In this document: piece after piece, positions 10,719 through 63,604 of the stretch
Numbering within the stretch: position 1 is the stretch's first letter
Layout: each line of letters starts with the position of its first letter
Assembly: GCA_963699755.1 (NCBI GenBank)
Contig: CAVOVB010000003.1
Location: 416,001-480,000 of the forward strand
Direction: 5' to 3'
Length of the DNA: 64,000 nt
DNA from: an uncultured delta proteobacterium
GTDB lineage: Bacteria; Myxococcota_A; Polyangia; Polyangiales; Houyiibacteriaceae
Made by a program: the position numbers and the translations under genes
The notes under the pieces: model-generated
Told to the model about the DNA's origin: nothing
Database searches by the model: none
The model's input: the letters and a program-made list of their open reading frames with translations, nothing else

Positions 10719-10732
10719 ACAGCCGTGCGGGG

Positions 10733-47496: not shown

Positions 47497-47545
47497 GATG
47501 CTCCTGTACCCCGAGCGTCCGAAACGCCGCCGAAGGGGGAACCTC

Positions 47546-47573
47546 ACTATTCCTTAGTTTTCCCCTAGGTCAA
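47546..47573 (-). promoter_or_regulatory. Putative promoter of the reductase operon
   Basis: Minus strand TTGACC-16 nt-AATAGT. Confidence 0.35.
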
Positions 47574-47675
47574 GTCAAGAATGGTGATTTCGCAGTAGCC
47601 GGTCCCCTTTTGTGGGTCAAAACGACAAGAAATACACGAGTGATCTAGTAAAGAATTGCCGGCCTCGTCCGTTGC

Positions 47676-47711
47676 TTGCTGAGGTAAGCCTTGCCGCTAT
47701 AGTGCCGCCGC
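47676..47711 (+). promoter_or_regulatory. tRNA operon promoter with GC-rich discriminator
   Basis: TTGCTG (47676), 16-nt spacer, TATAGT (47698), then GCCGCCGC. Confidence 0.55.
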
Positions 47712-47741
47712 TGGACACCCCAACTAAGGTGTCGAGACCAT

Positions 47742-47812
47742 TCGGGGATCGTCTAACGGCAGGACTCCAGTTTCTGGCACTGGCTATCTAGGTTCGAATC
47801 CTAGTCCCCGAG
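47742..47812 (+). tRNA. tRNA-Gln(CTG)
   Basis: Acceptor TCGGGGA/TCCCCGA, anticodon arm CCAGT-TTCTGGC-ACTGG, GGTTCGAATCC; no encoded CCA. Confidence 0.93.
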
Positions 47813-47846
47813 CTAGTCCCGTGTTAAAGCGCGAGACCCGAGAATC

Positions 47847-47922
47847 GGCCCCATCGTCTAGTGGTCTAGGACATCGGCCTCTCACGCCGGTAACGCGAGT
47901 TCGAACCTCGCTGGGGTCACCA
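47847..47922 (+). tRNA. tRNA-Glu(CTC)
   Basis: Acceptor GGCCCCA/TGGGGTC, anticodon arm TCGGC-CTCTCAC-GCCGG, GTTCGAAC, encoded CCA. Confidence 0.95.
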
Positions 47923-47963
47923 CAGTTTGAACTTAGATTACCAGTACTTGCAGACACGTCGCC

Positions 47964-48752
47964 TTACTCCGTTGACCTGACGTTGACATGAGGCGGCGAC
48001 GTGGGCTGTAACGACTCGACCAAACGAAGGCGCGCGCCGTCCCCGAGATGGGCGTAGCGGTGCGTGCTCGCCTGCGATCGATGGCCGAGTTGCGCTTGGA
48101 TGATCTTGAGTGAGTGGCCGCGCGTTGCAGCCTGTGACCCGACCGAGTGACGACCAATCTGATGATGACCGATCACTCGAAGGCCGAGCGCCTCTTGCGC
48201 CTTGCGAAGCGGTTTCGCGTGGCTGTTGAGTTGCTTGGCCCACTTGCCCGTCTTTGAAAACAGGAACTCGGGTCCGGAGTATCCCTCGCGTATGTGCCAT
48301 CGAATCGCGTCGGCGGCGTCCTGAGGCAAGGGGAGGGTGAGCACGCGGTTGTTCTTGCGGGGGATCAGCTTGGCCTCGCGTTGGCTGTTGCCTTCTTGCA
48401 CCGCGCGGTCGACGATCAGGTGCGGCGGGATGTCGCGAATCCGATCCTTCGAGATTGCGTACACCTCTCCACGACGCAGGCCGAGCCTCATCGTGAGGTA
48501 GAAGAAAGTGTACCACTGCGGATATCGCTCGATTATCCCATCGAGCAATCGATCCCGTTCGGCCTCCGTGTACCAATCGGGTCGGTACTCCGGAACGGGC
48601 TGTGTAGGCACATAAGGAACGTGCATGAGTTGGCCGCGCTTCCACATGAAGCGGAGCACCGCACGCACGAGAGTCAGATTCTCGTTGATCGTCTTCGGGC
48701 TGAGGTGTTGGGGCATGGAAGCCACCAGCCCATCGAGCGCGACCGTGGTCAC
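47964..48752 (-). pseudogene. Tyrosine recombinase/integrase, N-terminally truncated
   Basis: GLRRGE (R), K, HQIGRHS, LGHRS, HRYAH (Y); in-frame TAG directly before the GTG; no arm-binding region. Confidence 0.8.
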
Positions 48753-48928
48753 CTAGCACGGTCTGGAGATCGCTCATGAGCATGAGCGCTGAAAGGGCTC
48801 TACAGGCGAGCACGATCGACGCCTCCTGCTCTCGGCGGGGCTCGAGTGTGTTCCGTGCGCATGCGGCCAGCAGCGTGTGATACGGGGTGCAAGTGGTAGG
48901 CTCTGCCCGGATCGGGTAAACATACCGA

Positions 48929-49450
48929 ATGAAATGTCTTTGTTATCTTACGCGGAGACGTTTGCGCATCTCACTGGCCTTCACATGTTTGCTTCTGCTT
49001 TGCGGTTGCGGCGACACCGGCGCCGAGCCCGAAGCGCCCAAGCAGGTCCGGCTTTGTGGCGATCTCGTTGGCGTAGAACCGGTTGAGCCCACCGTGATTG
49101 GCGAGGATGAATACGGTTGCCCGGTCTTTCAGCCCGTGCCCTGCACGCGGCCACGCCACGAGCAAGAGTGGGCTTGCGGTCCCGATTGCCGAACAGCGAC
49201 GGCCTTCGATTCGGAGGGCGATGAATGGGTCATGGGGTGCGCAGGGGGGAGTCGTCCCCTGCCCGTTGGATGCATCGACTTGGAGCCCGACCCTCCACCT
49301 CGATCGCTTTGCGTGGTGGACCCCTTCGAGAGCGACCAGTGGTGGTTCGAAACCAATTGCGCCGTTGCCAACGTCTTCTTCGTTTCCCAGTCCTGTTGGG
49401 CTCCGTGCGACGCCTACACCGAGGAAGCATTGGCCCCGTCCTGCCCGTAG
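48929..49450 (+). CDS. Cys-rich lipoprotein (unit 1 cargo)
   Basis: Lipobox LLLCGC; many Cys; acidic. Confidence 0.65.
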   Translation: MKCLCYLTRRRLRISLAFTCLLLLCGCGDTGAEPEAPKQVRLCGDLVGVEPVEPTVIGEDEYGCPVFQPVPCTRPRHEQEWACGPDCRTATAFDSEGDEWVMGCAGGSRPLPVGCIDLEPDPPPRSLCVVDPFESDQWWFETNCAVANVFFVSQSCWAPCDAYTEEALAPSCP

Positions 49451-49473
49451 AGTTTTCGCGCGATTCCAGTCCC

Positions 49474-49583
49474 TCAACGCCCCGCCTCGAGCGCCTCCCA
49501 ATCTCTAAGAAACCCCACAATCGAGTTCCAACTTGGCGCACTTGGGGTCACCGCCACCACAAAGCCCGGCTTCGGCCGGGCTT
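49474..49583. repeat. att-like composite repeat 1
   Basis: Minus-strand peptide VTPSAPSWNSIVGFLRDWEALEAGR*; core TGGGGTCACC 49543-49552; hairpin AAGCCCGGC-TTCG-GCCGGGCTT. Confidence 0.88.
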
Positions 49584-49672
49584 CTTCGGCCCGCGAATTG
49601 CGCAGAGGCTATTACGGGCGTGGGGACTGATGCCGGTAGCTTCTACCCGCCGCACGGCATATCTTCTTAGGG

Positions 49673-50083
49673 ATGGTCGTTGGTTTCCTTCGAGTGACCA
49701 CTCTCGCCTTAGTGCTGATGCTCTTTGCGTGTTCCGATGCGGACAGCGGCCCAAACGTCATGATGAGGATTGAGACGATCACGGGGGATTCGCTGGTCGC
49801 GGAGTATCGAGTCGCCTGTCAAGGAAGCGGCTCCGAATTCCTGGAGGATGGAACATTCGAGCCCTCGGGTATGGGCTCGTCGGCGGATATCATCGGATTT
49901 GGTCAGGTCGTTGACACCATCCTTTGGACCGCCTCGATCACTGCGCCGCCTGGTGAGTGTGCCGTCAGCTATAGGTTGCGGGACTCCAAGGCAGAAGTGA
50001 TCTGCGTAGGTTTCCAGCAGTTCGTTGTCCCAGCGGATGCGCCCCAAGAGGTCTACTACCTCATGGTCTGCGAGCTGTTCTGA
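49673..50083 (+). CDS. Lipoprotein (sole gene of unit 2)
   Basis: Lipobox LMLFAC; fills a 770-bp unit. Confidence 0.7.
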   Translation: MVVGFLRVTTLALVLMLFACSDADSGPNVMMRIETITGDSLVAEYRVACQGSGSEFLEDGTFEPSGMGSSADIIGFGQVVDTILWTASITAPPGECAVSYRLRDSKAEVICVGFQQFVVPADAPQEVYYLMVCELF

Positions 50084-50240
50084 AGCTGTGTGTACGAACT
50101 ACGCGAGCCGATGATGTGGCGAGCGCCATCCGGGCATTTGTCCGGGCACACGGCGGCTCCCCAATCGACGGAGTGGAGATCGATTGGTCGCGTTGAGGCG
50201 AGAGGTGGTCGGAGGCGACAACCCGAGACGGCTCAGGCGC

Positions 50241-50356
50241 TCACGCCGCTATCGTCCGCAGCCGCTCCCACTCTTCGATGAAGCCGGAAAATTCGTACCA
50301 ACTTGGCGTACTTGGGGTCACCGCCACCACAAAGCCCGGCTTCGGCCGGGCTTTTA
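50241..50356. repeat. att-like composite repeat 2
   Basis: Peptide VTPSTPSWYEFSGFIEEWERLRTIAA*; core 50313-50322; same hairpin plus T-tract. Confidence 0.88.
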
Positions 50357-50382
50357 TCATGACTCGCCTATTGGTCCTCGCG

Positions 50383-50682
50383 TCAGCGACCCAGCCAATA
50401 ACCAGGGCGCCGCTTCGCGTGCGCCACTGCAATGATTTCGACGGCTGCCGCGTCGATGTCGAAAAACACGACATATGGGAAGCGTTTCAGAAAGTACTTT
50501 CGATATGGACGATCAGCGCGCCAGACCGGACACGCTTCGGGGTTCTCGAGGATGGATTCGAAAGCTCTATCCACGACCGCGACGAACTCGATACCGAGAC
50601 CGCGACGCTTTTGCTCGTACCATATCGCTGCCGACTGAAGCTCGGCTTCAGCTTCCGGCGATACGCGAAGCGTTCGCTTCAT
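50383..50682 (-). CDS. Type II toxin, RelE/ParE family
   Basis: 'AEAELQSAAIWYE...GLGIEF...KRFPYVVFF...IIAVAHAKRRPGYW'. Confidence 0.88.
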   Translation of the reverse strand: MKRTLRVSPEAEAELQSAAIWYEQKRRGLGIEFVAVVDRAFESILENPEACPVWRADRPYRKYFLKRFPYVVFFDIDAAAVEIIAVAHAKRRPGYWLGR

Positions 50683-50912
50683 CGCGCAAGCTGGCCGAGA
50701 ACGCGCGCGCGGACTTCACTCCACTCGGGGGCAGGTTCGTCCCTGCCACGAGCGGCTTCCACGCGACGATCGAGCTCCGCCAGCCAGGCAGACTCCCAGT
50801 CGCCATCCGGCGGCCCGTCGACGCTCGCGATGAGCTCTGCGGCGAGCGCCAGCCGCTCGTCCTCGGGCAGGGCGCTGGCTGCTTCGAGAAGCTTTTTGGC
50901 CGCGTCGGTCAT
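50679..50912 (-). CDS. Addiction-module antitoxin (TIGR02574-like)
   Basis: 'ALPEDERLALAAEL...AWLAELDRR...WSEVR'; ATGA overlap with toxin. Confidence 0.85.
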   Translation of the reverse strand: MTDAAKKLLEAASALPEDERLALAAELIASVDGPPDGDWESAWLAELDRRVEAARGRDEPAPEWSEVRARVLGQLAR

Positions 50913-51002
50913 CGACGAGATTGTAGCACGGGCGAGATCATGATGTGGTTTCGGCCGGAACCGCCGAAAGTTTCGTATTTTTGAGCCTCGCCGCCGACAA
51001 GA

Positions 51003-51113
51003 TCACGCCGCAAGCCTCCGGAGCCGCTCCCACTCTTCAACGAAAGCGAAGAATTCGTTCCAACTTCGCGTACTTGGGGTCACCGCCATCAGAAGGCCCG
51101 GCTTCGGCCGGGC
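51003..51113. repeat. att-like composite repeat 3
   Basis: Peptide VTPSTRSWNEFFAFVEEWERLRRLAA*; core 51075-51084; hairpin GCCCGGC-TTCG-GCCGGGC. Confidence 0.88.
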
Positions 51114-51200
51114 TGCTTCTATCGCCGGGCGCAGCCGGGCAGAGCGATTTCATCTTCGAATACCGGGGTGTCGCAGTTGCGAACATGGATCATCTGGGGG

Positions 51201-51824
51201 TTATGGCGCGGACGCGGCGGGAGCACGCTTGCGCAAGCGCGGAAAGAAGGCGCCAGTGTTTCTGCGGTAGGCGCTGTAGGCGTCGCCGAAATGCTCGAGC
51301 ATCATCTTTTCCTCAGAGCGGCTGTAGATCACGATCGCCGGAATCACGTACGCGATCGTGATCACCGCGGCCGCCGAGCTCGCGAAGCCAATCGCCACGC
51401 TTACCCAGATCATGATGGCGAGTAAGTAGATCGGGTGCCGGACGTGGGCGTAGGGACCGTGGGTGATGATCTCCTGGTCGGAAAGGACGTAATGCCCCAC
51501 TGCCACAGTCGGGAACGCGCGAATCGACCACCACAGCAGGGCTAAAGCGCCGAGGGCGAACGCCGTGCCCGCAAAGACTCGAGCAAGCTCCAGAGTCGTC
51601 GGGTCCGCGGGATTCTCGTGTCCGATCCACAGATACAGTGTCACCGCGAACAGCAGCGCCGGCTCTGGATACGCAACGAAATCGGTCCAAGCCGCAGGCG
51701 TCGTGACGGCGCGCTTTCGATAGGAAAGCGTACGACGAAAGAAAACATAGTGGACAACCACCGCGCGCCCCAGGGCGATCAGGGCGATGATGCCGAGGCC
51801 GACGGGATAGAGATCGAGTTGCAT
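51201..51824 (-). CDS. Isoprenylcysteine carboxyl methyltransferase family membrane protein
   Basis: GPYAHVRHPIY, EEKMM..HFG..Y..Y, FFPRL; GGAGG RBS. Confidence 0.85.
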   Translation of the reverse strand: MQLDLYPVGLGIIALIALGRAVVVHYVFFRRTLSYRKRAVTTPAAWTDFVAYPEPALLFAVTLYLWIGHENPADPTTLELARVFAGTAFALGALALLWWSIRAFPTVAVGHYVLSDQEIITHGPYAHVRHPIYLLAIMIWVSVAIGFASSAAAVITIAYVIPAIVIYSRSEEKMMLEHFGDAYSAYRRNTGAFFPRLRKRAPAASAP

Positions 51825-51835
51825 GGCTACCTCCG

Positions 51836-51892
51836 AAACATGAGGAAATGCTCATGTTTGACAAAACATGAGGGAGGCCTCATGTTTGTCAA
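51836..51892. promoter_or_regulatory. Tandem TetR operators overlapping divergent -35 boxes
   Basis: AAACATGAG-N6-CTCATGTTT at 51836-51859 and 51864-51887; TTGACA on + at 51858 and on - at 51887-51892. Confidence 0.8.
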
Positions 51893-51908
51893 GGCATAGA
51901 CAACCTCG

Positions 51909-52532
51909 ATGGCAAAAAACGAAGAAATTCGGGCGTTCCCACAGCAGGAGCGCAGCCACAAGCGGTACCTGTCGATCCTGAATGCGGCGGCGGAGGTATT
52001 TGCGGAGCGCGGCGTGGAAGCTGCGACCATGCAGGAGATCGCCGAGCGGGCCGACACTTCAATAGGGTCGGTATACCGGTTCTTCGCCGATAAGCAGGCG
52101 CTCTTTCAGGCGGTTCTCGACCGAGTGGCCGCCAACGAGCGCGAGCTGCTCGAGTCGGTCTTCGCTGACGCTTTTGATGAGTCGATTCCGACTCTGATCG
52201 ATCGCGTCATCGACGTGTACGCGGCATTCAACGCGCAAGAGCCTGGCTGGTATGCGATTTGGCGTCACCTCAACCTCCACGCGGCTTCGGACAAGACCGG
52301 CCACACGCCTCGCGATGAGCAGTTGAGGCGCTTGCTGATGTTGGTCGGCTACTACGCGCCCCATTTGGACGAAGCACGGCGCCAGGTGGTCGCGACGACG
52401 GTCCTCGCGTTGCTGACCAGCATGCTGGCCGCCGCAGAGCGTCAGCCGTCGCCGATGCGAGAGCGCCTGCTCGAAGAAACCAAACGCGTTCTGAGACTGT
52501 ACGCGCAGGATTATCTCGCTGGAGGCACCTAG
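51909..52532 (+). CDS. TetR/AcrR family regulator
   Basis: PQQERS, 'ATMQEIAERADTSIGSVYRFFADKQAL' HTH. Confidence 0.92.
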   Translation: MAKNEEIRAFPQQERSHKRYLSILNAAAEVFAERGVEAATMQEIAERADTSIGSVYRFFADKQALFQAVLDRVAANERELLESVFADAFDESIPTLIDRVIDVYAAFNAQEPGWYAIWRHLNLHAASDKTGHTPRDEQLRRLLMLVGYYAPHLDEARRQVVATTVLALLTSMLAAAERQPSPMRERLLEETKRVLRLYAQDYLAGGT

Positions 52533-52786
52533 ATGATGACCAGGGCGTTCTGCCAGTCTGGCCACAGCAGAGCGAGCGCTCGCGTAAACCAACACACCGA
52601 CCACCAAGAGGATCCCATTCCCCACCGAGAACCAGGCGAAGATCAGCGCGTTGCGTTGTCTTCTTGGTGAGGCAGTCACCATTCAGTTCCCGAATTGCGC
52701 AAATCCAAGCTCTCGTGTCGACTTTCTCGAGAACGAAAGAGCGCATCTGAGCTTGTTGTGAGCGGCGGGATTTCGTTCACGGACTC

Positions 52787-52900
52787 TCACACTACTAGCC
52801 TCTGGAACCCCCTCCACTCGGTGAGGAACCCCACAAAGGAGTTCCAACTCCGCGTCGTTCGGGTCACTCAGAAAGCCCGGTCTTTGGACCGGGCTTTCTT
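52787..52900. repeat. att-like composite repeat 4 (most diverged core)
   Basis: Peptide VTRTTRSWNSFVGFLTEWRGFQRLVV*; core TCGGGTCACT 52859-52868; hairpin AGAAAGCCCGGTC-TTTG-GACCGGGCTTTCT. Confidence 0.8.
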
Positions 52901-52933
52901 CGTTGTCTTTTGGTACATCCGACCCGCCCACCC

Positions 52934-53062
52934 CCGCCCGTAATCCTCCCTGCGCGGTGGTCGCTTCGCTCCACCTTGCCGGCGCATTCGCGCCGGGCTT
53001 CGCCCTTCGGGCTCGCGCTGCCGGGGCGCTTGCCGTCTTCGCCCTGCCGGTGGTGCGGGCGG
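52934..53062. repeat. Multi-hairpin palindromic element
   Basis: Outer CCGCCCG/CGGGCGG; inner GGTGG..CCACC, CCGGCGC-ATTC-GCGCCGG, GCCC-TTC-GGGC. Confidence 0.45.
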
Positions 53063-53065
53063 TTT

Positions 53066-53854
53066 CTAGGGACTTCCCCTCGCGCCAACGTGCTCGGTAG
53101 GCTCGAAGTCATCGATGCGGATGTAGTGCAATCGTCCCGGTCCCACCACGCGGCCGTCTGGCTCTGTCCTCTCTTGTTCGCACATGAGCTCGATGTCTCC
53201 GCCTCCTTGCTCCTGGCGGAAGAAGGACCTGCACGGCACATCCAGCGGAAGGCTCTCGCCGTCTCGAATCACGTAGTCATTACAGCTCGTGCTCGTGTAG
53301 TGAGAGAAGGGCGGAACCTCCAACACTCCCCAGGTCTCATGCGCCCGGGTGCCATCCGCCGCCTCCCACTCGCGAGTCCTAGAGCACTCCAGCGGGTCGC
53401 CGAACAAGGAGAGCTCATCGAAGGATCGAGCCACTGGAACGAGCAACTCTTTGATCAAGCCCCCGGCTTCCACGTGAACCTCGAACTCACTGGGAGCATT
53501 TGGATGGAGGTTCATGAAGTTGTAGCAACGGAGACCATCCAACTCGCCTCCCGCCTCGATACGCCAAGGGGCAGTCACTGTAACCTCACCAGCGACATCG
53601 GTGAGAATCAGGCTCGGGTCATAGTCGGCCCAAGATGCTCGGAGGTTCGCAAGCGCCTCGTCGCCGACAATTGGCGAGGCGTCCAGGTTCGGCGAGGAGA
53701 TGCGAACACTTGTGAGAGCACCATCACCTGCCGTGACGCAGACCATCGTTTCCGTCGCCTCGACGACGACCTCGGGCGGTTTCACATCTTCTCCGCAAGC
53801 AACCAACGAAATGAGGACGAAGGCGAGCACGTTGCTCCGTCGGGGCCGGGCCAT
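53066..53854 (-). CDS. Lipoprotein (sole gene of unit 5)
   Basis: MARPRRSNVLAFVLISLVAC lipobox; acidic Cys-containing mature domain. Confidence 0.7.
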   Translation of the reverse strand: MARPRRSNVLAFVLISLVACGEDVKPPEVVVEATETMVCVTAGDGALTSVRISSPNLDASPIVGDEALANLRASWADYDPSLILTDVAGEVTVTAPWRIEAGGELDGLRCYNFMNLHPNAPSEFEVHVEAGGLIKELLVPVARSFDELSLFGDPLECSRTREWEAADGTRAHETWGVLEVPPFSHYTSTSCNDYVIRDGESLPLDVPCRSFFRQEQGGGDIELMCEQERTEPDGRVVGPGRLHYIRIDDFEPTEHVGARGSP

Positions 53855-53969
53855 CGCGAGAGAGTACCATTCGGAGAGTCTGGCCGTCGAGCGTCGCTGA
53901 GACGACTGGAAATCAGCCTGGCTGGCCAATGCAGAACGCCCCCACCACGACCGGCAAGACCTGGGTCCC

Positions 53970-54143
53970 TTAACCGGCGGCTCGCAATGCCGCGTGCCTC
54001 GCGCGCCGGCGAAGCCCCTCCCAATCTGTGAGAAACCGAACAACCGCGTTCCAACTTCGCGTACTTGGGGTCACCAAAAAAACAAGGGATTGTGATTCCG
54101 GTCGGAGTCCCTTGGTGCGTTGTGGCAAATATGTGTCACCCGC
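53970..54143. repeat. att-like composite repeat 5
   Basis: Peptide VTPSTRSWNAVVRFLTDWEGLRR...*; core TGGGGTCACCA 54066-54076; right flank type 2 (CAAGGGA...TCCCTTG, TGTGGCA/TGTGTCA). Confidence 0.88.
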
Positions 54144-54150
54144 GTGCCGC

Positions 54151-54618
54151 TCACCCATCAGGACCCGCGACCTCTGGCGATTGACCCACCGAGCCTTCCA
54201 GCGTCTCTTTGACGCTGATGAGCGCCAACCCGAACTCCCGTGCATTCCGCCTCGCGGCGATGTGCTCCGCAAGCTTTCCCAGCACGGGAATGGGGACGTT
54301 GTACTTGACCTCGAGCGTCAGTACCGAGCCTTCCTCGTGGGGTTCGACCCCGTATGCAAACGTGCTCTCAATCATGCCGATGGTCTGATGCACCGCGCAT
54401 TTGCCCGGAACGTGCTCGACGACCGTAGCCTCTCCATGAAGGAACAGGCCTGCCATCTTGTAGGTCCACGTCTGCTGCTGGCCGGCGCCGCTCCCGATCA
54501 CATCGGCCACTTCGACCATCCCTGGCAGCCATTCGACCAAGTTCATCGGGTCGTCCACGTACGCAAACACTCGATCCGTGGGCGCATGGATCACGATACT
54601 GTTCTTCCAGGAGATCAT
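54151..54618 (-). CDS. SRPBCC (polyketide cyclase/START) family protein
   Basis: 'SIVIHAPTDRVFAYVDDPMNLVEWLPG', C-terminal helix. Confidence 0.8.
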   Translation of the reverse strand: MISWKNSIVIHAPTDRVFAYVDDPMNLVEWLPGMVEVADVIGSGAGQQQTWTYKMAGLFLHGEATVVEHVPGKCAVHQTIGMIESTFAYGVEPHEEGSVLTLEVKYNVPIPVLGKLAEHIAARRNAREFGLALISVKETLEGSVGQSPEVAGPDG

Positions 54619-54984
54619 GTCAGCCGACTCCCGTTCTAGGGGGTCGCCACCGTATGCAACCACCGGATTCTGTTCATGTCTATACGCAATTCTTTATTCG
54701 TTCGAGGCTTCGGCAGGCCTAGCAGTGCATACGAGAGGTTTCGGGGAAGGATCTAGAAGACAACTCCGATTCTCCGCAATTGGGTCACGCGCCCGGACGT
54801 TCCGTGCGTGTTGTAGCAAAGGCCGGAGTGACGAGGGCCGAAGACCCGAGCTCCCGCTGCCACCATCTTCGTGTTCCTCCGGCGCGCTCCGAGGTGATCA
54901 CCCGAAGGCCGTGGATAGACGTCCGGCACGCGGAGCAGGTGGCCAGCCAAGACGCGCCTGTGAAGTGCGGATAGATTCACTCGA

Positions 54985-55431
54985 TTAGTCTAGCTCAGCA
55001 AGTTTCGCGGCGAGCTGCTTCTTTGCCCAACGTTCTGCCTCGATAGGCTTGGAGAAAAGTTGGTAGGGAAACTTCGGTGGCGAGAGCCAAGTCACGGCGG
55101 TCACGACGCCGCGCAGCCATGGGCTCGGTACGATCAACGCGGAGCCCGCATACCACGGAACGCTGAGTTCTCCGAAACGCTTGAGGTGCTCGGCTAACTC
55201 TTTGCGTTGGATGGCCGGCGCCTTGGTGACGTTGGAGAGATCAATGACCCAGGCCATCGGGTAGCGCGCGCGAATCGCCCAGTCTTCGCGTGCCCGAAGA
55301 GATGCCTTAAGCTCTTCGTTGGTGGCTTCCGAAGGAAAGGTCCATCGGTAGATCGGCATGAGGTCGTTCGAGAACCACGGATGGTCGATCTGGATCTGCT
55401 CCGCAGCAGGCTGACCCTTAGCCCTGTCCAT
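54985..55431 (-). CDS. Hypothetical protein (STAS/SEC14-like)
   Basis: 'WVIDLS...QRK...ALIVPSPWLRGVVTAVTWLSPP...EAERWA'. Confidence 0.65.
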   Translation of the reverse strand: MDRAKGQPAAEQIQIDHPWFSNDLMPIYRWTFPSEATNEELKASLRAREDWAIRARYPMAWVIDLSNVTKAPAIQRKELAEHLKRFGELSVPWYAGSALIVPSPWLRGVVTAVTWLSPPKFPYQLFSKPIEAERWAKKQLAAKLAELD

Positions 55432-55495
55432 TCGGACAGGATAGCGCTTAAAACCTCACCCTTCCAAAGTGAAGTGGAACTCGACGCCCATCCTC

Positions 55496-55906
55496 TCAAT
55501 CGGGGCGACGAACGCCCAGCTGGGTCTCGACGCGGTGTTGTCGGTGCAATCGGCGTTCGGCCACGCGAGTCACCCGCTCCAGCACATCGCCTTTGCTGGA
55601 GTCGATCGCCAGCATGAGTCTGGCTGTCGCGACGGCGCGAGCGTCAAAGCCCCTCGCCGAATACAGGTACGCTGCGCGCTCATATGCGCGAAGGGCCTCC
55701 GCCTCGTGTCCGATCCGACGCAACAAGTCCCCCTTGCGGTGCGGCCACCGGGGCTCCTCCGGCTTTCGTTTTTCGATGAGCTCGTAGATGTCGAGCGCTT
55801 CGATCATCCCTCCCTGCTCGAGCGCTCGGTTGAGCTCGGCACAAAGATCTATGGTTTTGCTTTCGCTTCTACGGCTCGTTTTGTTGGGGATCAAATGCTT
55901 CCACAT
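55496..55906 (-). CDS. Small TPR-like protein
   Basis: 'ALDIYE...PRWPHRKGDLL...ALRAYERAAYLY'. Confidence 0.6.
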   Translation of the reverse strand: MWKHLIPNKTSRRSESKTIDLCAELNRALEQGGMIEALDIYELIEKRKPEEPRWPHRKGDLLRRIGHEAEALRAYERAAYLYSARGFDARAVATARLMLAIDSSKGDVLERVTRVAERRLHRQHRVETQLGVRRPD

Positions 55907-56051
55907 GGGACCGACACAAACAGGGGGATCTTCGAGAGAACACCCTTTCGGGACTAGCGTCCACAAGTAATTCTTCCCTCGGGCTCGGCGCGTCCCGTCT
56001 CACGAGGCGCAAAACACTGCCTGAGTAGCTGAACAGACCTTCAACGTTCAC

Positions 56052-57395
56052 CTAGCCGCGTTTCCAAAGCGCTCCAACTCGCTTGAGAAGACCAGGACGA
56101 CTCGGTCCGATCGTTTCACGCGATTCCAGGTTTTCCGCGATGTCGAGTGTACGCCTCGCACTTTCAGTCATGCCCGCTGCGCCGTACACCCGCGCGAGAG
56201 TGCGCCGGAGCTGGGCATCATCGGGGGCGTTTGCGACGGCCTGCTCGGCGCGGCGACGAGCGTGTTTGAGATCGCCTCCGGATGCGAGCAGTGCTTCGGC
56301 GACCCCATGGGCGGCGCGCGCGTCATCAGGTTGTCCGAGCAAGACCTTTTCCCAGGTCTTCGCCGCAGCTTCCCACATGCCGAGGTTCTCCTCATAGGCG
56401 GCCTGCGCCCGGAACGTTGGCGCAAGGCTCCTGTGCATTTCTTGGCTCACCGTTGCCAAGGCGTTCTCGAGGACACTGCAATCCGAGACGATCGAGCTCG
56501 CCAGGCGGAGCGCATTGGTCGCGCCGACCAAGTTCTCCGCCTCGCGTTCGATGATGGCGCTGCGCACCAGTCCTTCGGCACGCACCCGGCTGGCTCCGCG
56601 GGGCGCGCACTCGCGAAGTGCCGTGACGAGGTAATATTCGGCAATCTTTTCTTCTGGGAGAGCCTTTGGGGCGCTGAGGTCCTCTCCCATGAGAGCGCGC
56701 TTCGATGTGCGTGATGCGGGCGCGGAGGCCTGGGCAGGTGGCGGAACCAGCGAGGCTCGACGGACGCCCTCGGAAAGCGCGTCCTCGATCGCATGCGTCT
56801 CTTGTCGATAGAGCAGGTACTCATCGTAGCTCTGTTTGCGCTCCGGGGTGCGAAGCACCTCATAGGCCGCGGATACGCGTTCGCGAACGCGCCGCGTCCC
56901 GAGTCGCGCCGCCATCCGCGCGGCCAACGTGCCCTCCTCGAGCGCTTGTGCCCGATCGTGACCGCGCTCGATGTCGGCTGGGCTGCAGTCCGCATAGAGA
57001 CCGAGGAGTTGATAGTGCGTGAGTCGTTCGAAGCGCTCGAGGAGCCGGGGGGCGGGGGCACGCATCGAGACGAGGTTCCGTTTCGTGCTCATGCGTGTTC
57101 CAGACAGGCGGCGCCCGGGCTCTTCGGAAGCAGCCGTCGAGTCCACTGGCACCTCGTGGTCCCAATGGATCAAGCCCATCGCGGTCAGGCGGTTGAGGAT
57201 CTCCGTGACCGTCCAGGGGTCGAGACCGCAGACATCGACGATCTCGTGGGCCAGCATGACTCCATCGATCCGCGACAGAACGTAGGCGTCCCGCGAGTCG
57301 AGCGACATGGACCGGAGCTTTTCGGATGCCTGATGTACAAGTCGAGGCGCAGGCGGATGCCGAGGCGCGGCGCTGCTTTTGGTCGCTACCTTCAT
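56052..57395 (-). CDS. Degenerate J-domain plus TPR protein
   Basis: 'THYQLLG', 'AYEVLRTPERKQSYD', C-terminal TPRs; no HPD. Confidence 0.7.
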   Translation of the reverse strand: MKVATKSSAAPRHPPAPRLVHQASEKLRSMSLDSRDAYVLSRIDGVMLAHEIVDVCGLDPWTVTEILNRLTAMGLIHWDHEVPVDSTAASEEPGRRLSGTRMSTKRNLVSMRAPAPRLLERFERLTHYQLLGLYADCSPADIERGHDRAQALEEGTLAARMAARLGTRRVRERVSAAYEVLRTPERKQSYDEYLLYRQETHAIEDALSEGVRRASLVPPPAQASAPASRTSKRALMGEDLSAPKALPEEKIAEYYLVTALRECAPRGASRVRAEGLVRSAIIEREAENLVGATNALRLASSIVSDCSVLENALATVSQEMHRSLAPTFRAQAAYEENLGMWEAAAKTWEKVLLGQPDDARAAHGVAEALLASGGDLKHARRRAEQAVANAPDDAQLRRTLARVYGAAGMTESARRTLDIAENLESRETIGPSRPGLLKRVGALWKRG

Positions 57396-57661
57396 TGGGC
57401 GCGAGATTACGAAAACCCGGGCTGGAAGGCCCAAAAAATGGTCGACTTGGTCTTTTCAGTCAGCTAGTTCGACCATAACGACACTGTCGTTCCTCAAAAC
57501 GTTGTCCGTCTCGAGGTGTGAGCCGCGATGATTGCGAAGGTGACCTAGCGGACGGAGCTCAGACCCTCGCGTGCGTTGCTTACGGCTCGACATGCGCGAG
57601 TCGAGCGCGGCAGCCGCCTTGGCCCAACGCGCAGCTGCGCACCGACTGCGGTGGTCGAAGC

Positions 57662-57777
57662 TCATCGTGCTGACATCCGAAGCCTGTCCCACTCTTCAAT
57701 GAAAGCGGAAAATTGGTTCCAACTTCGCGTCGTTGGGGTCACCATCAAAGCTCGGCTTCGCCCGTGCTTTTTCTTTG
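57662..57777. repeat. att-like composite repeat 6
   Basis: Peptide VTPTTRSWNQFSAFIEEWDRLRMSAR*; core TGGGGTCACCA 57734-57744; degenerate hairpin plus T-tract. Confidence 0.88.
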
Positions 57778-58122
57778 GACGTGGTCTCCTCGAATCGAGG
57801 GCAGCGGTTATCGGTCACCCAGGTCAACAGGTTGTGTGACAATCTAACTTCGTGCTCAACCTGGGTCGGATCTTCGGGATCTTCGATCTGCTCGGGTGGA
57901 ATCAGCCCCAGGAGTGGTCTATCACGATGCCGCGGTGCGCTGGCTCGCGGATGTGCGGTGCGCCGTGTTCGCGCCGCGGTGATTCACAGTGCCACGTGAC
58001 GATGCCGTGCGATGCCCTGTCGGCGAACCGCCACGGGCAGCCGGCGTCTGAGTTGTTCCTGGGCTCCGATGGCCAGCGCAGTTCGAGGTCGAGGCCCGAT
58101 GATGGAGGCTCCGGTCACGATG

Positions 58123-58860
58123 CTAATCGTCGTGCCCACGGTGCTTGTCGTCGTGCCCACGGTTGCGGCCGTTGTGCCCACGATGCTCGTCGCCGTGCCC
58201 ACGGTTGTGGCCGTTGTACCCACGGTCGCGGCCGTCGTACCCACGATTGTAGCCGTTGTGCCTACGATTGTGGCCGTTGTGCCCACGGTTGTGGCCGTTG
58301 TGCCCACGGTTCTGACCCGGGTACGTCGTGGGCCGGTGGCGTCCGGAGTGATCGTAGCGATGCCCGTAGTACCCGCCCTGACGATAGTGGTGATATGTTC
58401 GATGCTGAACGGTGGCGCCGTAGGGCCTATAGTGCCCGCGAATGTGGTAGTGGTACCCTCCTGAAAACACCCAACGCGGTGCAACGAAACGGTAGCCGTG
58501 TATCGGGCTCACGTAGTGTCCGCCGATCCACACATAGCGGACCCCGCTCCACCACCAATACCCGCCGACCCAGATGGCTCCGGCGTAGGGGACGCGAGGC
58601 CGGACCTCGAACCTGACCGGCGGAGGTGCTGTTTGAACGATCACCCACGACGGCTCGGGCTCCTCGATGATGATGCTCCTTTCGCCCGCAATCGGCTCGA
58701 CGACGACGTAGGCGTCGGGTTGGTTGATCACGAGACCTTGGCCGAGCGCCGTTTGAGGAACGGAGCCGATGAGCAGCAGCGCCAAGAACGCTAGGGGAAC
58801 ATGGATCTGACCCCGAGGCTTGGCGCAACTGACTGTGGTCGTTTTGTGCAGATTCTTCAT
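58123..58860 (-). CDS. Secreted YXWGXW-repeat-like protein with His/Asn/Arg/Gly-rich tail
   Basis: Signal peptide, 'APPPVRFE', WVGGYWWW / WIGGHY repeats; GAGG RBS. Confidence 0.75.
   Translation of the reverse strand: MKNLHKTTTVSCAKPRGQIHVPLAFLALLLIGSVPQTALGQGLVINQPDAYVVVEPIAGERSIIIEEPEPSWVIVQTAPPPVRFEVRPRVPYAGAIWVGGYWWWSGVRYVWIGGHYVSPIHGYRFVAPRWVFSGGYHYHIRGHYRPYGATVQHRTYHHYRQGGYYGHRYDHSGRHRPTTYPGQNRGHNGHNRGHNGHNRRHNGYNRGYDGRDRGYNGHNRGHGDEHRGHNGRNRGHDDKHRGHDD
58132..58311. repeat. 21-bp tandem repeat (about 8.5 copies)
   Basis: Unit GTGCCCACGGTTGTGGCCGTT, encoding GHNGHNR on the minus strand. Confidence 0.9.
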
Positions 58861-59011
58861 GACCTCGCTGAGACGGACCTGAGGGCCCGGTTTATTCAGG
58901 AAGGGTTAATTCGTCTCTCAGGGCCTCAGTTGCCACTCGCTCTTGCAGCACCCGGGGGATCCGGAGTGCCCCGACGCGCCCGGTGGGACGTAGGCCCTGC
59001 CGAGTGTTTTC

Positions 59012-59410
59012 GTGTTTGCCGCCGCAGTGCTGACGGGCGTCCTGATTTGGGGCCTTCGTTTGCTCTCGGACGTGCTGAATCAGCCAACAGGCGCCGACGC
59101 GAAGTCCAAAGTAGTCAGCAGGATGCTCGCTGAAAAACCGATCAAGCAGCAAGGCCCGGCAACGTCGCTAGTGCCGAGTTTCAGCAGGGTCACGGGAGCC
59201 CCGGGTGCCACGGTCATCGGGGCATTCTTCGTGGGAGTGAGCTATTGGGCGTTGTTCGGCCTCTTCTTTGGAAAGAACCTTGGCAACCTCGACAAAGTTG
59301 GGGCGCTTGTCGTTTCGGGCACCGCCTTCTTCGCGCGTTACGCGTTCAATCAGCTACGCGCGGTCTTTAGCCGACCCTCGCGAGCACGGTGCGTGTGGTG
59401 TCGCTGCTAG
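59012..59410 (+). CDS. Possible membrane protein fragment
   Basis: Three hydrophobic segments; no clear RBS; in-frame TAG shortly upstream. Confidence 0.3.
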   Translation: MFAAAVLTGVLIWGLRLLSDVLNQPTGADAKSKVVSRMLAEKPIKQQGPATSLVPSFSRVTGAPGATVIGAFFVGVSYWALFGLFFGKNLGNLDKVGALVVSGTAFFARYAFNQLRAVFSRPSRARCVWCRC

Positions 59411-60108
59411 TTCCCGAGCACCGACCAGAAAGCCGTTCCGACCCAGATTCGAAAGGCAAAGTCGACATCTGAGGTGCCGTTTCCGATGCCGATGGCGGGG
59501 CCGAGCTCGAACAGAAAAAAAGGTGCCACCTTCGGGGCGGCGTTGATCTCGACACCCATGCGAACCATGAGTGGAATGATCCCCCAAGGGTCCACGTCTC
59601 TTGCGAACATCAGGGTAAACGGAATCGTCGCTCCGGTGACCACGCTGACCCGGTCATGCACGTCGATCGAAACGGGAATCGCAAGCTCGGCGCGCACGCC
59701 ACCCATGACCCGCCGATCAAACCGAAAACCGACAGGAGGCACTCGGCCACGGTCACGGTCGCTACCGCCGACCATGGCACCCGGCGTGAACCGAATCCCA
59801 ACATCGGTTGTGGCCTTGGCATGCTTCCTGTTGTGGATATGCCAGCGGAGCGGAGCGTTGAGAGCAAGACCGACGCTCACATCCGAGAACGCGCCTGACC
59901 AATCCCCGTACAACAGCTCGGCGCCGAGTGCCCAGTCCAGCTTGCCTTGCCCCTTGTTCCACCATTCGTAGAACAGGCTCGGCCAACCGACCCCCGTGTT
60001 GTGCACCATGTCGGACTTCAGCCGCTTCCCTCCAATTGTGGACTGCGGACCCGCAAGTGCGGTGCTCGACATGGCAAGCACCAATACAAAAACGGCAACG
60101 GCTCTCAT
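59407..60108 (-). CDS. Secreted beta-barrel-like hypothetical protein
   Basis: GGAGG RBS, signal peptide, amphipathic aromatic strands. Confidence 0.7.
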   Translation of the reverse strand: MRAVAVFVLVLAMSSTALAGPQSTIGGKRLKSDMVHNTGVGWPSLFYEWWNKGQGKLDWALGAELLYGDWSGAFSDVSVGLALNAPLRWHIHNRKHAKATTDVGIRFTPGAMVGGSDRDRGRVPPVGFRFDRRVMGGVRAELAIPVSIDVHDRVSVVTGATIPFTLMFARDVDPWGIIPLMVRMGVEINAAPKVAPFFLFELGPAIGIGNGTSDVDFAFRIWVGTAFWSVLGN

Positions 60109-60559
60109 TGCACCTCCCTCTCGGCCTCCGGTGACCAGACTCTAAGATCCGGGAAGCTCGAGAGCAAAAGTATCGCGAGGGAGTGCCACCCAAAGTGCCA
60201 CTTCAGGGAGATGAAAGAGATGGTAGGCAACGCTCCTTAGCTCCGTCGGCATCCGAATCGCGTGGTTCTAGTCCCTATGTCGATTTTCTCGCGGACGAAA
60301 GAGGGCGTTTGAACGCACTGTGAGCGGTAGGATTTGTTCCCCCAACGATCTCACGCCACGAGCGTCTGGAGCCTGTCGTTCCTCAAGACGTCGTCCAGCG
60401 CGAATTTGGGCTGCGATGATCGCGAAGGTGACCCAGCGGACAGAGCTCGGACCCCTACGTACGCTGCCGATGGCTGGACATGCGGGAGTCGAGCGCGGCA
60501 TCGGCCTCAGCCCGGGGCAGCACGCGCAGCCGAGCATCGACTGCCCTCGCCGAAGCTCA

Positions 60560-60706
60560 TCATGCGGCCATCCGAAGCCTGTCCCACTCTTCAATGAAAG
60601 GGGAAAATCGGTTCCAACTTCGCATCGTTGGGGTCACCAAGAAAAAAAGGGATTCTGATTCCGATCGGAGTCCCTTGGTGCGGTGCGGCAAATACGTGTC
60701 ACCCGC
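60560..60706. repeat. att-like composite repeat 7
   Basis: Peptide VTPTMRSWNRFSPFIEEWDRLRMAA*; core TGGGGTCACCA 60629-60639; right flank type 2. Confidence 0.88.
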
Positions 60707-60713
60707 TTGCACG

Positions 60714-61144
60714 CTAGAGCTCGCACCTGTTCAGCTTCGCAACACTTTCGGCGTCCTTCTCCATGGCCTCAACCGCGCATCATTGAAGGTCCCCTTCGGC
60801 AAACATCAAGTGCGCCTGGCAAGCGAGCTTCGAGCCGATGAATGCTGTGTCGCCTGGTAAGAGAACGCAGCCCTGGCTGTGCACCCCACAGCCTCTGGCA
60901 AATCCGGCCGATTCATCCTGCGCCTCGACCAATGTCTTGTTCGGTAGGTCATTGAAGTTCACGCCCGTCACTTCCTCGATCGCGTCGATATCGCCTGCTG
61001 CGCTGCCGCAGCGCTGAACGCGTCGATGGCCGAGAGGTAGATATTCAGCTTGCCACCATACGCGGCATTGAGGCTCGGCCTGCTGAGACTCGTCGCCGTC
61101 GACAGGTCGTCCAACGAGGTCGCGGCATAATCCTGTTTGCGGAA
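60714..61144 (-). pseudogene. TetR family regulator pseudogene
   Basis: HTH remnant 'YAATSLDDLSTATSLSRPSLNAAYGGK'; frame break near 60970; in-frame TGA at 60780. Confidence 0.6.
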
Positions 61145-61433
61145 GGACGCCGGCCCCCCAAAGAATGTTGAACAGACGACCGACCGAGTGTGGGGGAGCA
61201 GAAGCGCCCGCAGCCTCGCGGCACTGTCGACGCGTTGATCAGATCTTCTGGAGGTGTACCCGGTGCAGACCACCCCCCTTCCTTGTGTTGAAATCGTTTC
61301 GCGTGACGCGACAGATTTGCGTTTGCTCCCGCGCTCTTACATGGTCCTTCGTTCGCCGCAGCCGGAATGCCGACCCGTTTCGACGTGGTACATCTCTTGC
61401 AAGCTGCGAGACGCTCGCCCCCCAAGGTGGAGA

Positions 61434-61952
61434 ATGGATCTACACATGCGCATCCTATCGATCGGGTTCTTCGCGTGCTCGTTGTTCGTCGTGTTCCCGG
61501 GAGCTCGTTCGCTGGCGCAGGACTCGAGCGCCGCGCCGCAAGTCCAAGCTGCCCCTGAGCCTCCGCTGTGCGTTAGCGGTCGGCGTGGCTATCGCCCCTA
61601 CGACTACTACGACCTCGAAGAGGCGGAGCAGCGCAGTCGAATCGTCCGGAATGCGCTGATCGGTACCAGTGCGGCGCTTGCCACCGGCATCGTTCTCGCG
61701 GGGATCGGATCGTCGCAATGCAATCACGAGACCCAGTCGGACGGAAGCGACAGTTGGTCGTGCAACACTGCAGGAAACGTCTTGTGGGGGGTCGGCGGGG
61801 CCTTCATCGGACTCGGCACGATCGGGGCGCTCACGACGGGCATCATGCTCGGCGTCCGCAACAAGCAAAAGCGCGAGATCGAGTGGGACCTTCGACGCCG
61901 TTACCGCACCCGTATTCGTTGGGACGAGAGATCGGGCCAGTTCGTGTTCTAG
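61434..61952 (+). CDS. Secreted/membrane hypothetical protein
   Basis: Signal peptide, two Gly-rich TM segments flanking a Cys pair. Confidence 0.6.
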   Translation: MDLHMRILSIGFFACSLFVVFPGARSLAQDSSAAPQVQAAPEPPLCVSGRRGYRPYDYYDLEEAEQRSRIVRNALIGTSAALATGIVLAGIGSSQCNHETQSDGSDSWSCNTAGNVLWGVGGAFIGLGTIGALTTGIMLGVRNKQKREIEWDLRRRYRTRIRWDERSGQFVF

Positions 61953-61999
61953 CGGAGTCGACCTCATTCAGCGTTCACCTATTGGGAGACCGGGACAAC

Positions 62000-63007: not shown

Positions 63008-63028
63008 GTCCGTTCGAAAGGAGTCCTG

Positions 63029-63550
63029 ATGGCACAGCAGGTCGACGGCGAGTTCGCGGGCCACTTCCTTGAACGTCTGTACGCGGCCGTGAATGCGCAC
63101 GACGCCAACGCCGTGGCCGCGCTCTGCTCAGAAGGCATCGTGTGGGAGGACCCAGCCGCGCCCGAAGCGCTGCACGGACGCGAGGCCGTGTGCCGGTTCC
63201 ACCGCGACATCATGTTCCGAGCAATTCCAGACGTGAAAATCGAGCTCGTCGACGGGCCGTACCTCGCTCTCAACGGCACGAGCGTCGCGGTTCGGTCGCG
63301 CATCAGTGGAACGATGACCGGGCCGCTGACACCGCCAGGCTTTGCGCCAACCGGGGGAGCCATCGAGTTCGAGACGGCGGAGTTCTCGCAGTTCGATGGC
63401 GACTTGCTCGCCCGCCACGCGGTGGTGCTAGACATGCTCGGACTGGCGCGCCAGATCCACGCGGTGCCCAAAGCGGGTAGCTTCGCCGATCGGTTCGGCG
63501 TCTGGCTCCAGCACATCGCCGCGCGCCGAGCACGAAGGCATCGGGCGTGA
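63029..63550 (+). CDS. SnoaL-like / ester cyclase (NTF2 fold)
   Basis: AGGAG RBS; 'NAHD...DPA...GREAV...PD...GTMTGPL...APTG'. Confidence 0.82.
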   Translation: MAQQVDGEFAGHFLERLYAAVNAHDANAVAALCSEGIVWEDPAAPEALHGREAVCRFHRDIMFRAIPDVKIELVDGPYLALNGTSVAVRSRISGTMTGPLTPPGFAPTGGAIEFETAEFSQFDGDLLARHAVVLDMLGLARQIHAVPKAGSFADRFGVWLQHIAARRARRHRA

Positions 63551-63604
63551 CGCCGGATCGAGCGACTCAGCTCGGAGAGCCTTCACGCCAAGGGATGAAT
63601 CACG

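Follow-up and report, generated by a model that had tools for sequence, protein, structure and literature searches.

Directly downstream of a transfer RNA (tRNA) gene for glutamate, in the genome of an uncultured soil or sediment myxobacterium of the order Polyangiales (G000; 5.35 Mb in 11 contigs), lies a tandem array of small DNA units bounded by direct repeats of the 3' end of that tRNA. Throughout the manuscript "the window" refers to the whole stretch of 64,000 nucleotides (nt) that was analysed, positions 416001-480000 of contig C3, and coordinates are counted from its first letter. The array follows a pair of genes, tRNA-Gln(CTG) and tRNA-Glu(CTC). Ten 3' bases of the latter, TGGGGTCACC (the core), recur downstream, always on the + strand, in six exact copies and one variant, TCGGGTCACT, at 52859 (Table 1); the variant is a genuine member of the set because its flanks align with those of the other copies. 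An eighth copy at C3:482643 (window-equivalent 66643), 2.6 kb beyond the end of the window, closes the last of eight units, A to H. The positions and common orientation of the cores, variant included, and the lengths of the first seven units agree with the original prediction made from this DNA, which took the units for cassettes without integrase genes, stacked at the tRNA by a recombinase acting in trans.

The repeats are tied to this tRNA. With at most one mismatch the core has 10 matches in the window against 3.52 expected, a number that none of 100 shuffles reached. The exact 10-mer occurs genome-wide 27 times, and the 17 occurrences outside the set related to attachment (att) sites have unrelated flanks. 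An nhmmer profile of the eight copies, run against all 5.35 Mb of G000, recovers, at E ≤ 6.5e-15, the eight array copies and one more where contig C11 ends; the next-best match has E = 0.66. The sites are not scattered over the genome, being confined to this locus and one contig end, and tRNA-Glu(CTC), with seven, is the only one of 55 tRNA and transfer-messenger RNA genes to be followed by more than two copies of its own 3' 10-mer. As for the contig ends, the last 59 nt of C11 (93729-93787, minus strand) break inside a cassette repeat, and the last 46 nt of contig C6 (153035-153080) are a partial tRNA-Glu, 100% identical over tRNA positions 31-76, with no full gene. Contig breaks at the att repeats, together with a contamination rating of 9% for this genome, mean that these two ends may conceal another array or another strain.

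Each core is the right end of a conserved repeat of ~95 nt, of which ~85 nt to the left of the 10-mer (the arm) align between copies; the att-like repeats of the original prediction are real, and are longer than the 10-27 nt that it had allowed them. As it had also noted, a GTTCCAACT motif begins 18 nt before each core, and GTTCGAACC begins 13 nt before the core of the tRNA. Conservation is best over the 29 nt up to the core (majority fraction 0.94-0.96), with its peak over GGTTCCAACTTCGC..TTGGGGTCACC, a region that includes CCAAC-N8-GTTGG, the only symmetry found. In the commonest arm subtype (47 distinct arms) it is at least 0.84 over 75 nt and continues more weakly and patchily to ~175 alignment columns, or ~130-175 nt. 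A search of the window against Rfam at E ≤ 1 returned the two tRNAs and a chance match to Thr_leader, and no family that fits the repeat.

On the other side of the core, sequence is variable and structure is constant. The 45 nt after the core fold with -15 kcal/mol or less at 71% of 93 distinct junctions, versus 18% of 490 controls (p = 1.6e-22). These GC-rich hairpins, which follow most cores, are part of the right-hand unit, differ in sequence from unit to unit, and are preceded on the + strand by A-runs. From this arrangement we infer that they would terminate transcription of cargo on the minus strand, and that the hairpin of the first unit in line would also terminate the tRNA transcript. 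Hairpin type is not significantly associated with arm type either within units or across junctions (chi-square p = 0.28 and 0.11, with crude classes).

Read on the minus strand, every copy of the repeat contains a frame of 25-27 codons, VTP(S/T)xRSWNxFxxF(I/L)xEWExL, with no internal stop in 66 of 67 copies. Its ratio of nonsynonymous to synonymous polymorphism (pN/pS) is 0.76 and that of the five other frames 0.87-1.11, pairwise differences fall evenly on the three codon positions (150/141/153), and two + strand frames are almost equally stop-free. The "conserved stop" of this short open reading frame (ORF) coincides with a TCTCACGCC motif that matches the anticodon loop and stem of the tRNA. 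Because of this match, and because one copy in the related genome G011 is part tRNA sequence and part cassette core, we read the arm as a diverged and expanded copy of the tRNA 3' half, probably maintained mainly at the DNA level. Two further identities were considered for the short ORF and abandoned. The first, modelled on phage Mx8, made it the C-terminal tail of the integrase in the excised form; the related integrases end in ...PPHVNVRSTE, and their stop precedes the core in another frame. The second rested on a resemblance of MAVTPSTRSW... to the integrase N-terminus MAVRKLARSW..., and was dropped when the 5' ends of 13 full-length integrase genes proved only weakly similar to the repeat in DNA.

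Some 100-200 nt to the left of the arm are also conserved, in the window at 57459-57692 and 60271-60594 (minus strand) and in many "type 1" units of relatives. Since the recurring peptides into which this stretch translates (MSFDDGNPC... and ...VRWVTFAIIAAHISRRTTF) fall in varying frames, it resembles either a gene in decay or a non-coding sequence that is conserved.

Table 1. Coordinates of the tRNA pair, repeats, units and genes of the array (aa, amino acids).
Feature	Position	Strand	Length	Description
tRNA-Gln(CTG)	47742-47813	+		ARAGORN, Rfam; opens the tRNA pair before the array in G000 and six relatives
tRNA-Glu(CTC)	47847-47922	+		ARAGORN, Rfam; 3' bases 47912-47921 are the core TGGGGTCACC, attB-like anchor
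Unit A	47923-49552		1631 bp	Decayed integrase-bearing element; homologous to the full-length element of L054 from the core to 48754
Tyrosine integrase remnant (A)	47967-48752	-	262 aa	3' end 45 nt from the tRNA
Repeat 1	49466-49553	+		Core 49543-49552
Unit B	49553-50322		770 bp	Left-end hairpin; one ORF
ORF (B)	49673-50080	+
Repeat 2	50231-50323	+		Core 50313-50322
Unit C	50323-51084		762 bp
ParE-family toxin (C)	50386-50682	-
Antitoxin (C)	50682-50912	-
Repeat 3	50994-51085	+		Core 51075-51084
Unit D	51085-52868		1784 bp
PEMT/ICMT-type methyltransferase (D)	51204-51824	-
TetR regulator (D)	51909-52529	+		Divergent from the methyltransferase
Repeat 4	52777-52868	+		Variant core TCGGGTCACT 52859-52868; then terminator-like hairpin 52870-52899
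Unit E	52869-54075		1207 bp	One long ORF, either of the two below; no family match
ORF (E)	53069-54043	-
ORF (E)	52910-54028	+
Repeat 5	53985-54076	+		Core 54066-54075
Unit F	54076-57743		3668 bp
SRPBCC protein (F)	54154-54663	-
Unassigned ORF (F)	54988-55431	-
Unassigned ORF (F)	55499-55966	-
TPR protein (F)	56055-57434	-
Repeat 6	57652-57744	+		Core 57734-57743
Unit G	57744-60638		2895 bp
ORF (G)	58126-58860	-
ORF (G)	59410-60108	-
Repeat 7	60547-60639	+		Core 60629-60638
Unit H	60639-64000 (part within window)		6014 bp in total
Acg-family FMN (flavin mononucleotide) oxidoreductase (H)	61718-63004	+
SnoaL-like protein (H)	63029-63547	+
Repeat 8	66560-66653 (window-equivalent)			Outside the window; ends unit H

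The cargo of the units agrees in the main with what had been read from the sequence. The predicted toxin-antitoxin pair is the ParE toxin and antitoxin of unit C, and the predicted pair of TetR and target is the TetR regulator and methyltransferase of unit D. The predicted lipoprotein corresponds to the ORF of unit B, which has a signal peptide and zero family matches; its LFAC is lipobox-like in our own reading of the sequence. Unit G has no family match other than a weak one in NCBIfam, below the cut-off, between ORF 58126-58860 and the lipoprotein BcpO. The TPR protein of unit F, 460 aa long, is matched by a counterpart of equal length and the same Pfam pattern in an array of a relative (G023, C14; L021:15716-17095). 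Past the end of the window, unit H continues with an alpha/beta hydrolase and a quinone oxidoreductase, and repeat 8 is followed by the gene of a polyphosphate:AMP phosphotransferase, high in G+C at third codon positions. PADLOC, applied to 20 cargo ORFs, returned nothing above chance and no defence system.

Arrays in related genomes

With one copy as the query, the repeat was recovered from 17 of 24 congeneric genomes and from none of 16 belonging to other families of the order; matches number at most 22 per genome and are clustered. In the regions fetched from six relatives (G011, G023, G014, G020, G062 and G015) the arrays lie directly downstream of tRNA-Gln/tRNA-Glu(CTC), in constant orientation, with 15 cores in G011, 11 in G023, 12 in G062 and 6 in G014. 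The remaining array pieces lie at contig ends or beside partial tRNA-Glu copies, and partial tRNA copies of the classical kind (46 nt) occur within arrays. In a collection of ~185,000 species, each represented by one genome, 90 stretches match the 27-nt core pattern. Of the 80 titles listed, 78 are metagenome-assembled genomes with the label Polyangiales, Polyangiaceae, Myxococcales or delta proteobacterium, and two read Chromatiales and "uncultured bacterium"; the system is thus specific to one uncultured lineage. Two genomes without repeat arrays, G008 and G010, carry integrase remnants beside tRNA-Glu in place of an empty site, and the polyphosphate:AMP phosphotransferase of the right flank in G000 was found in none of four fetched regions, which extend between ~1.2 kb (G021) and ~15 kb (G008) beyond the tRNA; no clean example of an empty site thus emerged.

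Cutting 20 array segments from 11 genomes (440 kb) at cores, tRNA and partial tRNAs gave 93 units with a median size of 1631 bp, 29 of them below 1 kb and 29 between 1 and 2 kb (58/93 below 2 kb). After clustering, 46 of the 88 complete units were singletons, and 15 shared families occurred in differing positions with different neighbours, so that the order of units is not conserved in relatives. The clearest example is the 762-bp ParE unit, found in five arrays (G000, G062, G023, G005 and G019), each time between different neighbours. Two side observations concern individual units. Small ORFs for GIY-YIG nucleases recur beside genes for DUF6713 proteins and PMT-type glycosyltransferases (units F2 and F10; L016/L017 of G011 and L028 of G005). 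One unit of the G011 tRNA-Glu array contains a tRNA-Pro(TGG) on the opposite strand (C1, 23732-23807; L017); since integrase relatives target tRNA-Pro(TGG) elsewhere, arrays may nest or meet at this gene.

The boundaries of shared units fall at the core, as the original prediction would have them. In alignments with 160-nt flanks, the five copies of the ParE unit diverge directly after TTGGGGTCACC at the right end, even between the G000 and G062 copies, which are otherwise identical. At the left end, the near-identical ParE units of G023 and G005 start right after the core, behind arms of two subtypes. Three further families (F2, F7 and F8) each have one copy behind the tRNA and one behind a cassette core, with either the tRNA (CTCGC) or a cassette (ATCGT, GTACT) to the left of the junction, and always start right after the 10-mer, by which the exchange point is bracketed to the 10-mer itself.

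A comparison of G000 with G062 extends these observations to groups of units. Positions 47896-51085 of the window, that is the truncated integrase unit A with units B and C, from core to core, are 99.56% identical over 3195 nt to a segment of G062, while the flanks of the two genomes are 76.0% and 77.4% identical (11.8 kb upstream of the tRNA), the level of different species. The block adjoins the tRNA in G000, sits behind three units (9409, 936 and 1328 bp) in G062, and is followed by different DNA in the two genomes. As judged from these identities, a cassette block has recently been transferred between species. Both copies of the integrase break off at the same residue, and the block must therefore have moved after the truncation; either the truncated protein has kept some activity, or another enzyme acted, or the exchange was homologous.

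Since scattered sites, conserved unit order and boundaries away from the core were all looked for and none was found, the cassette-stack interpretation is supported overall. We infer in addition that a recombinase would act on these sites, in trans or otherwise.

Candidate recombinases

The integrase remnant beside the tRNA, already recognized in the original prediction, corresponds to residues 93-354 of its 354-aa relatives and is 96% identical to P0001; residues 1-92 have no match anywhere in 47701-49700. A full-length integrase of this tRNA-Glu type, 97% identical, is encoded on a metagenome contig (L054), where its 3' flank is that of unit A and a core repeat lies 45 nt away. The homology between L054 and G000 stops at 48754, the truncation point. 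Shorter remnants of the same type lie beside tRNA-Glu in G010 (residues 277-354) and G008 (315-354). The integrase family as a whole is present in 34 of 55 genomes of the genus (E ≤ 1e-20), with full-length members 59-73% identical to P0001; the five with an identified tRNA adjoin tRNA-Leu(TAA) or tRNA-Pro(TGG). In NCBIfam both P0001 and the remnant match only generic tyrosine recombinase models of the Xer/invertase kind, well short of the cut-offs (best 36.6-37.3 bits, against 220), XerA_Arch among them (36.6 bits), and they match no integron-integrase model. At all 13 full-length integrase loci examined a conserved ORF precedes and overlaps the start of the gene, and probably encodes a DNA-binding protein of excisionase type. 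In full-length paralogues (L032-L045, and G000 C3:17994-19049, outside the window) this upstream ORF has the motif ...IPVYG..R.RRFRRDMLDLYLTNPD.AMRKF...

Recombinase genes are rare inside the arrays. A tblastn search with the integrase over the 440 kb of array segments matched unit A, in its G000 and G062 copies, and otherwise a single gene of 27% identity. A Pfam scan took in 143 ORFs with a minimum length of 75 aa, which come from 71 of the 75 complete units below 7 kb in the relatives, five larger units being left out; it returned one Phage_integrase (the G062 copy) and one Resolvase, leaving 69 of the 71 units without a recognisable recombinase. The predicted non-autonomous, integrase-free character thus describes most units, with the exceptions that unit A is a decayed integrase element and that the arrays also hold partial tRNAs and an element with a serine recombinase.

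This element is the second candidate source of an enzyme. In G020 and G062 the tRNA-proximal unit encodes a serine recombinase, a MobA/VirD2 relaxase and a NikA-like protein. The recombinase occurs in 10 of the 55 genomes; in G020, G062, G011 and G023 (three copies) it lies ~0.5-1.3 kb from a full or partial tRNA-Glu, and in all four places examined the element begins directly after TGGGGTCACC, another case of a boundary at the core. It is 6-9 kb long and also encodes an LPD7 domain protein (G020:C10, L027 ~7400-13500; G062:C5); its right end is a full cassette arm and core in G020 and a cassette core in G062. It is possible that the relaxase element is a vehicle that carries blocks of cassettes between cells.

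Origin and movement of the units

The reading that we consider probable, without regarding it as secure, is that the units are recombinase-free cassettes with attP-like ends, stacked and exchanged at the tRNA as attB by a recombinase supplied from elsewhere. A cassette would consist of the conserved arm ending in the last 10 nt of tRNA-Glu(CTC), one to a few accessory genes and, usually, a GC-rich hairpin at the far end that would stop transcription of minus-strand cargo before the core. On circularization, arm, core and hairpin would join into one attP-like site, and site-specific recombination within TGGGGTCACC would bring cassettes in, remove them and exchange them. Entry would be at the attB-like copy of the tRNA, so that older cassettes would be pushed outwards. 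The enzyme would come from a recombinase-bearing unit that uses the same junction. The candidates are the tyrosine-integrase element, complete in L054 and truncated in the window, and the serine-recombinase/relaxase element, which could also take neighbouring cassettes along between cells.

Several observations weigh against this reading. The 55 genomes of the genus yielded no full-length integrase of the tRNA-Glu type, and with the serine recombinase in 10 of them most arrays are without an obvious cognate enzyme. Resolution of the crossover ends at the 10-mer, since too few junctions were informative at the variable core positions (CGC[R]T[MS][Y]T), and boundaries at the core do not alone exclude homologous recombination, because the similarity between units ends there anyway. 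No arm-type binding motif was demonstrated in the arms, and the attP arms of lambda-type phages are much longer than those described here. The orientation bias of the cargo is also weak: of 169 ORFs called in the arrays, 96 are on the minus and 73 on the plus strand.

Public sequencing runs bear on the same question. Twenty of them cover part of the stretch, in contig form, and were compared over positions 47000-62000; no excision product, single-unit circle or empty site was seen in them, a further point against this reading, although contig joints cannot separate strains, assembly effects and true excision, and uncovered stretches are uninformative. In run X2 a 954-nt contig joins 49539 to 50310 without a mismatch and so skips unit B (770 bp) through 44 shared nt, and unit B has a depth of 3.2-3.6 versus 5.5-6.2 alongside. 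In run X1 a contig puts the integrase unit behind another unit, and further joints at cores combine several arms with several hairpins. The X2 and X1 joints fit a presence/absence polymorphism and are weak evidence of it: the 44 nt exceed the k of 31 with which, we take it, the contigs were built, so that the X2 joint could be an assembly artefact or a homologous deletion. Runs X3 and X5 have a contig depth of 70-87 over the tRNA pair (47501-48001) and below 5 elsewhere; their joints (for example from the tRNA to the hairpin at 51092) come from relatives, because many organisms in those samples share the tRNA sequences.

The units might instead be fossils, once-autonomous integrase elements that inserted at tRNA-Glu and lost their integrase by deletion, in the manner of cis-mobilizable elements (CIMEs), and that are no longer singly mobile, the differences between genomes then being due to independent integrations and block transfers. 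Unit A is what such a history would produce, since its integrase lacks residues 1-92 and its homology to the full element ends there, and the stumps in G010 and G008 continue the series with ever deeper truncations; the classical partial tRNA copies in the arrays are of the expected kind, and half of the ssrA islands of Dehalococcoides also lack an integration module, according to PMC3146451. Random deletion should, however, leave stumps, as it has in G008, G010 and G000, and apart from unit A the 440 kb of arrays contain no trace of the integrase. Unrelated units begin right at the core with few recurrent hairpin types, whereas the integrase element begins with the 3' end of its integrase. 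The clean recurrent ends of ~90 other units are left unexplained, as is a 762-bp unit with nothing in it but a toxin-antitoxin pair and with exact ends in five contexts. We therefore regard a fossil origin for the units in general as unlikely.

A second alternative holds that the ~95-nt repeats act as portable homology for RecA-type exchange, with no dedicated recombinase at work today. Arms of the same subtype are 85-95% alike over at least 75 nt, the X2 contig without unit B is joined through identical sequence, and the G011 array holds one 3-kb unit twice. Such exchange accounts for deletions, but not for insertion beside the tRNA: the tRNA shares just the 10-mer with the repeats (14/16 nt when extended), yet the same units follow both the tRNA and cassette cores, and a new unit at a single repeat would need a circular intermediate or two crossovers within one short repeat. 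The core is moreover conserved above the rest of the arm, as expected of a site bound by protein. Homologous recombination as the general mechanism appears to us quite improbable, and exchange would more likely be site-specific.

Finally, the notion that the repeat is primarily an expression element, a short ORF or leader of minus-strand cassettes with recombination secondary, can draw on the frame open in nearly all copies, on two arm subtypes that keep W-N...F-(I/L)-x-(E/D)-W despite strongly different DNA and on a stop that overlaps an ATG in many copies, but is very hard to credit given the weak pN/pS signal with its even codon positions, the nearly stop-free + strand frames, the tRNA-derived "stop", downstream ORFs in varying frames, the lack of a fitting Rfam family and a sigma-70-type promoter scan that found zero sites in any repeat.

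Comparison with known systems

The stacking of cassettes at the tRNA that we favour can be interpreted in the light of several known systems. Tandem accretion of integrative elements at tRNA or transfer-messenger RNA genes is established, with ICESt1-type elements among the examples. A definition of CIMEs and a three-step accretion model are given in PMC5704250, where CIMEs are elements that lost integration and transfer genes through decay. As in accretion, the window has tandem units beside an intact target gene, bounded by direct repeats of its 3' end, and some units without recombination genes, such units being thought in the published systems to be mobilised with or by their neighbours. 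Unit A in particular has its integrase next to the tRNA with the 3' end towards it, as do the relatives at tRNA-Leu(TAA) and tRNA-Pro(TGG), and fits derivation by loss of integration genes with attL and attR kept; the other units have no remnant of such genes. Unlike accreted elements, the units are far smaller, share a long arm beyond the target repeat, have recurrent hairpin ends and show no traces of integrase decay. The nearest published case is that of the Dehalococcoides ssrA islands, 31 in number, bounded by 20-bp repeats and 16 of them with a serine-recombinase integration module, those without the module being described as what "might be cis-mobilizable elements" (PMC3146451).

Tycheposons of Prochlorococcus likewise integrate at tRNA genes, push older elements further in and leave partial tRNAs between neighbours; the elements counted carry their own recombinase and, in many of them, genes for replication, and number 1-2 per genome on average, and remnants "lack clear boundaries" (10.1101/2020.12.28.424599). 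The units described here, in contrast, are sharply bounded, occur with up to 15 cores per array, and mostly lack the hallmark recombinase of each element.

In staphylococci, staphylococcal cassette chromosome (SCC) and pseudo-SCC elements form tandem arrangements with short direct repeats at rlmH (orfX), and those without ccr can be excised by the Ccr of another element. The likeness lies in the tandem stacking at a conserved gene's 3' end and in elements of which some have no recombinase of their own; SCC elements are larger, have a different target gene, use serine recombinases only and have no long conserved arm. A parallel with SCC is drawn for the serine recombinase of the Dehalococcoides islands in PMC3146451. 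The dif modules of Acinetobacter plasmids, are also small modules of one function, resistance for example, with short sites and no recombinase, shuffled between replicons. Their XerC/XerD sites are inversely oriented, whereas the sites of the window are chromosomal direct repeats and accompany integrase and serine-recombinase elements; since the core derives from a tRNA end, a dif origin is unlikely.

The parallel with integrons drawn by the original prediction is one of function alone, since the arrays lack those defining features of integrons that were put to the test. Integrons combine a fixed entry site with small, diverse cassettes, toxin-antitoxin pairs among them, and variable content. 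The arrays here share the fixed entry, the long series of units with one or few genes, the recombinase-free cassettes, the diverse cargo including toxin-antitoxin pairs, and a content that varies between relatives, with exchange at the site core. They differ in that there is no IntI-type integrase, the entry site is the 3' end of a tRNA, and the sites are conserved in sequence over at least 75 nt (0.84-0.96) rather than being imperfect palindromes like attC. Nor are the units co-oriented single promoterless ORFs: genes lie on both strands, in unit D as a divergent pair, and most left ends carry a terminator-like hairpin.

A bolder reading, to which we give limited credence and which we put forward tentatively, is that of an independently evolved cassette-capture platform in which visiting recombinases share one 10-bp crossover. 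The tRNA-Glu 3' end would play the part of attI and the ~110-200-nt arm-core-hairpin site that of attC; cassettes would bring their own terminator and perhaps a leader ORF, cassettes bearing recombinases of two unrelated kinds (tyrosine or serine) would arrive occasionally, and the relaxase-bearing kind would ferry blocks between species. To our knowledge, integrons are the only well-studied ordered and exchangeable library of recombinase-free cassettes at a fixed site, and the origin of such cassettes is still an open question. Here a comparable library would be built from other parts, a tRNA attB, attP-like cassette ends and visiting recombinases, across a genus of uncultured Polyangiales. 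If the cassettes move singly, cassette platforms would have evolved more than once, the arrays would be a form intermediate between ordinary tRNA islands and integrons, and part of the turnover of accessory genes in a lineage without cultured members would be explained; the short conserved sites make a direct test in a heterologous host feasible. A literature search turned up no description of such arrays in Myxococcota, which is not proof of absence. Overall, the present system differs from those compared in its cassette-sized units, regular ends, near-absent recombinases and two unrelated recombinase elements at one junction.

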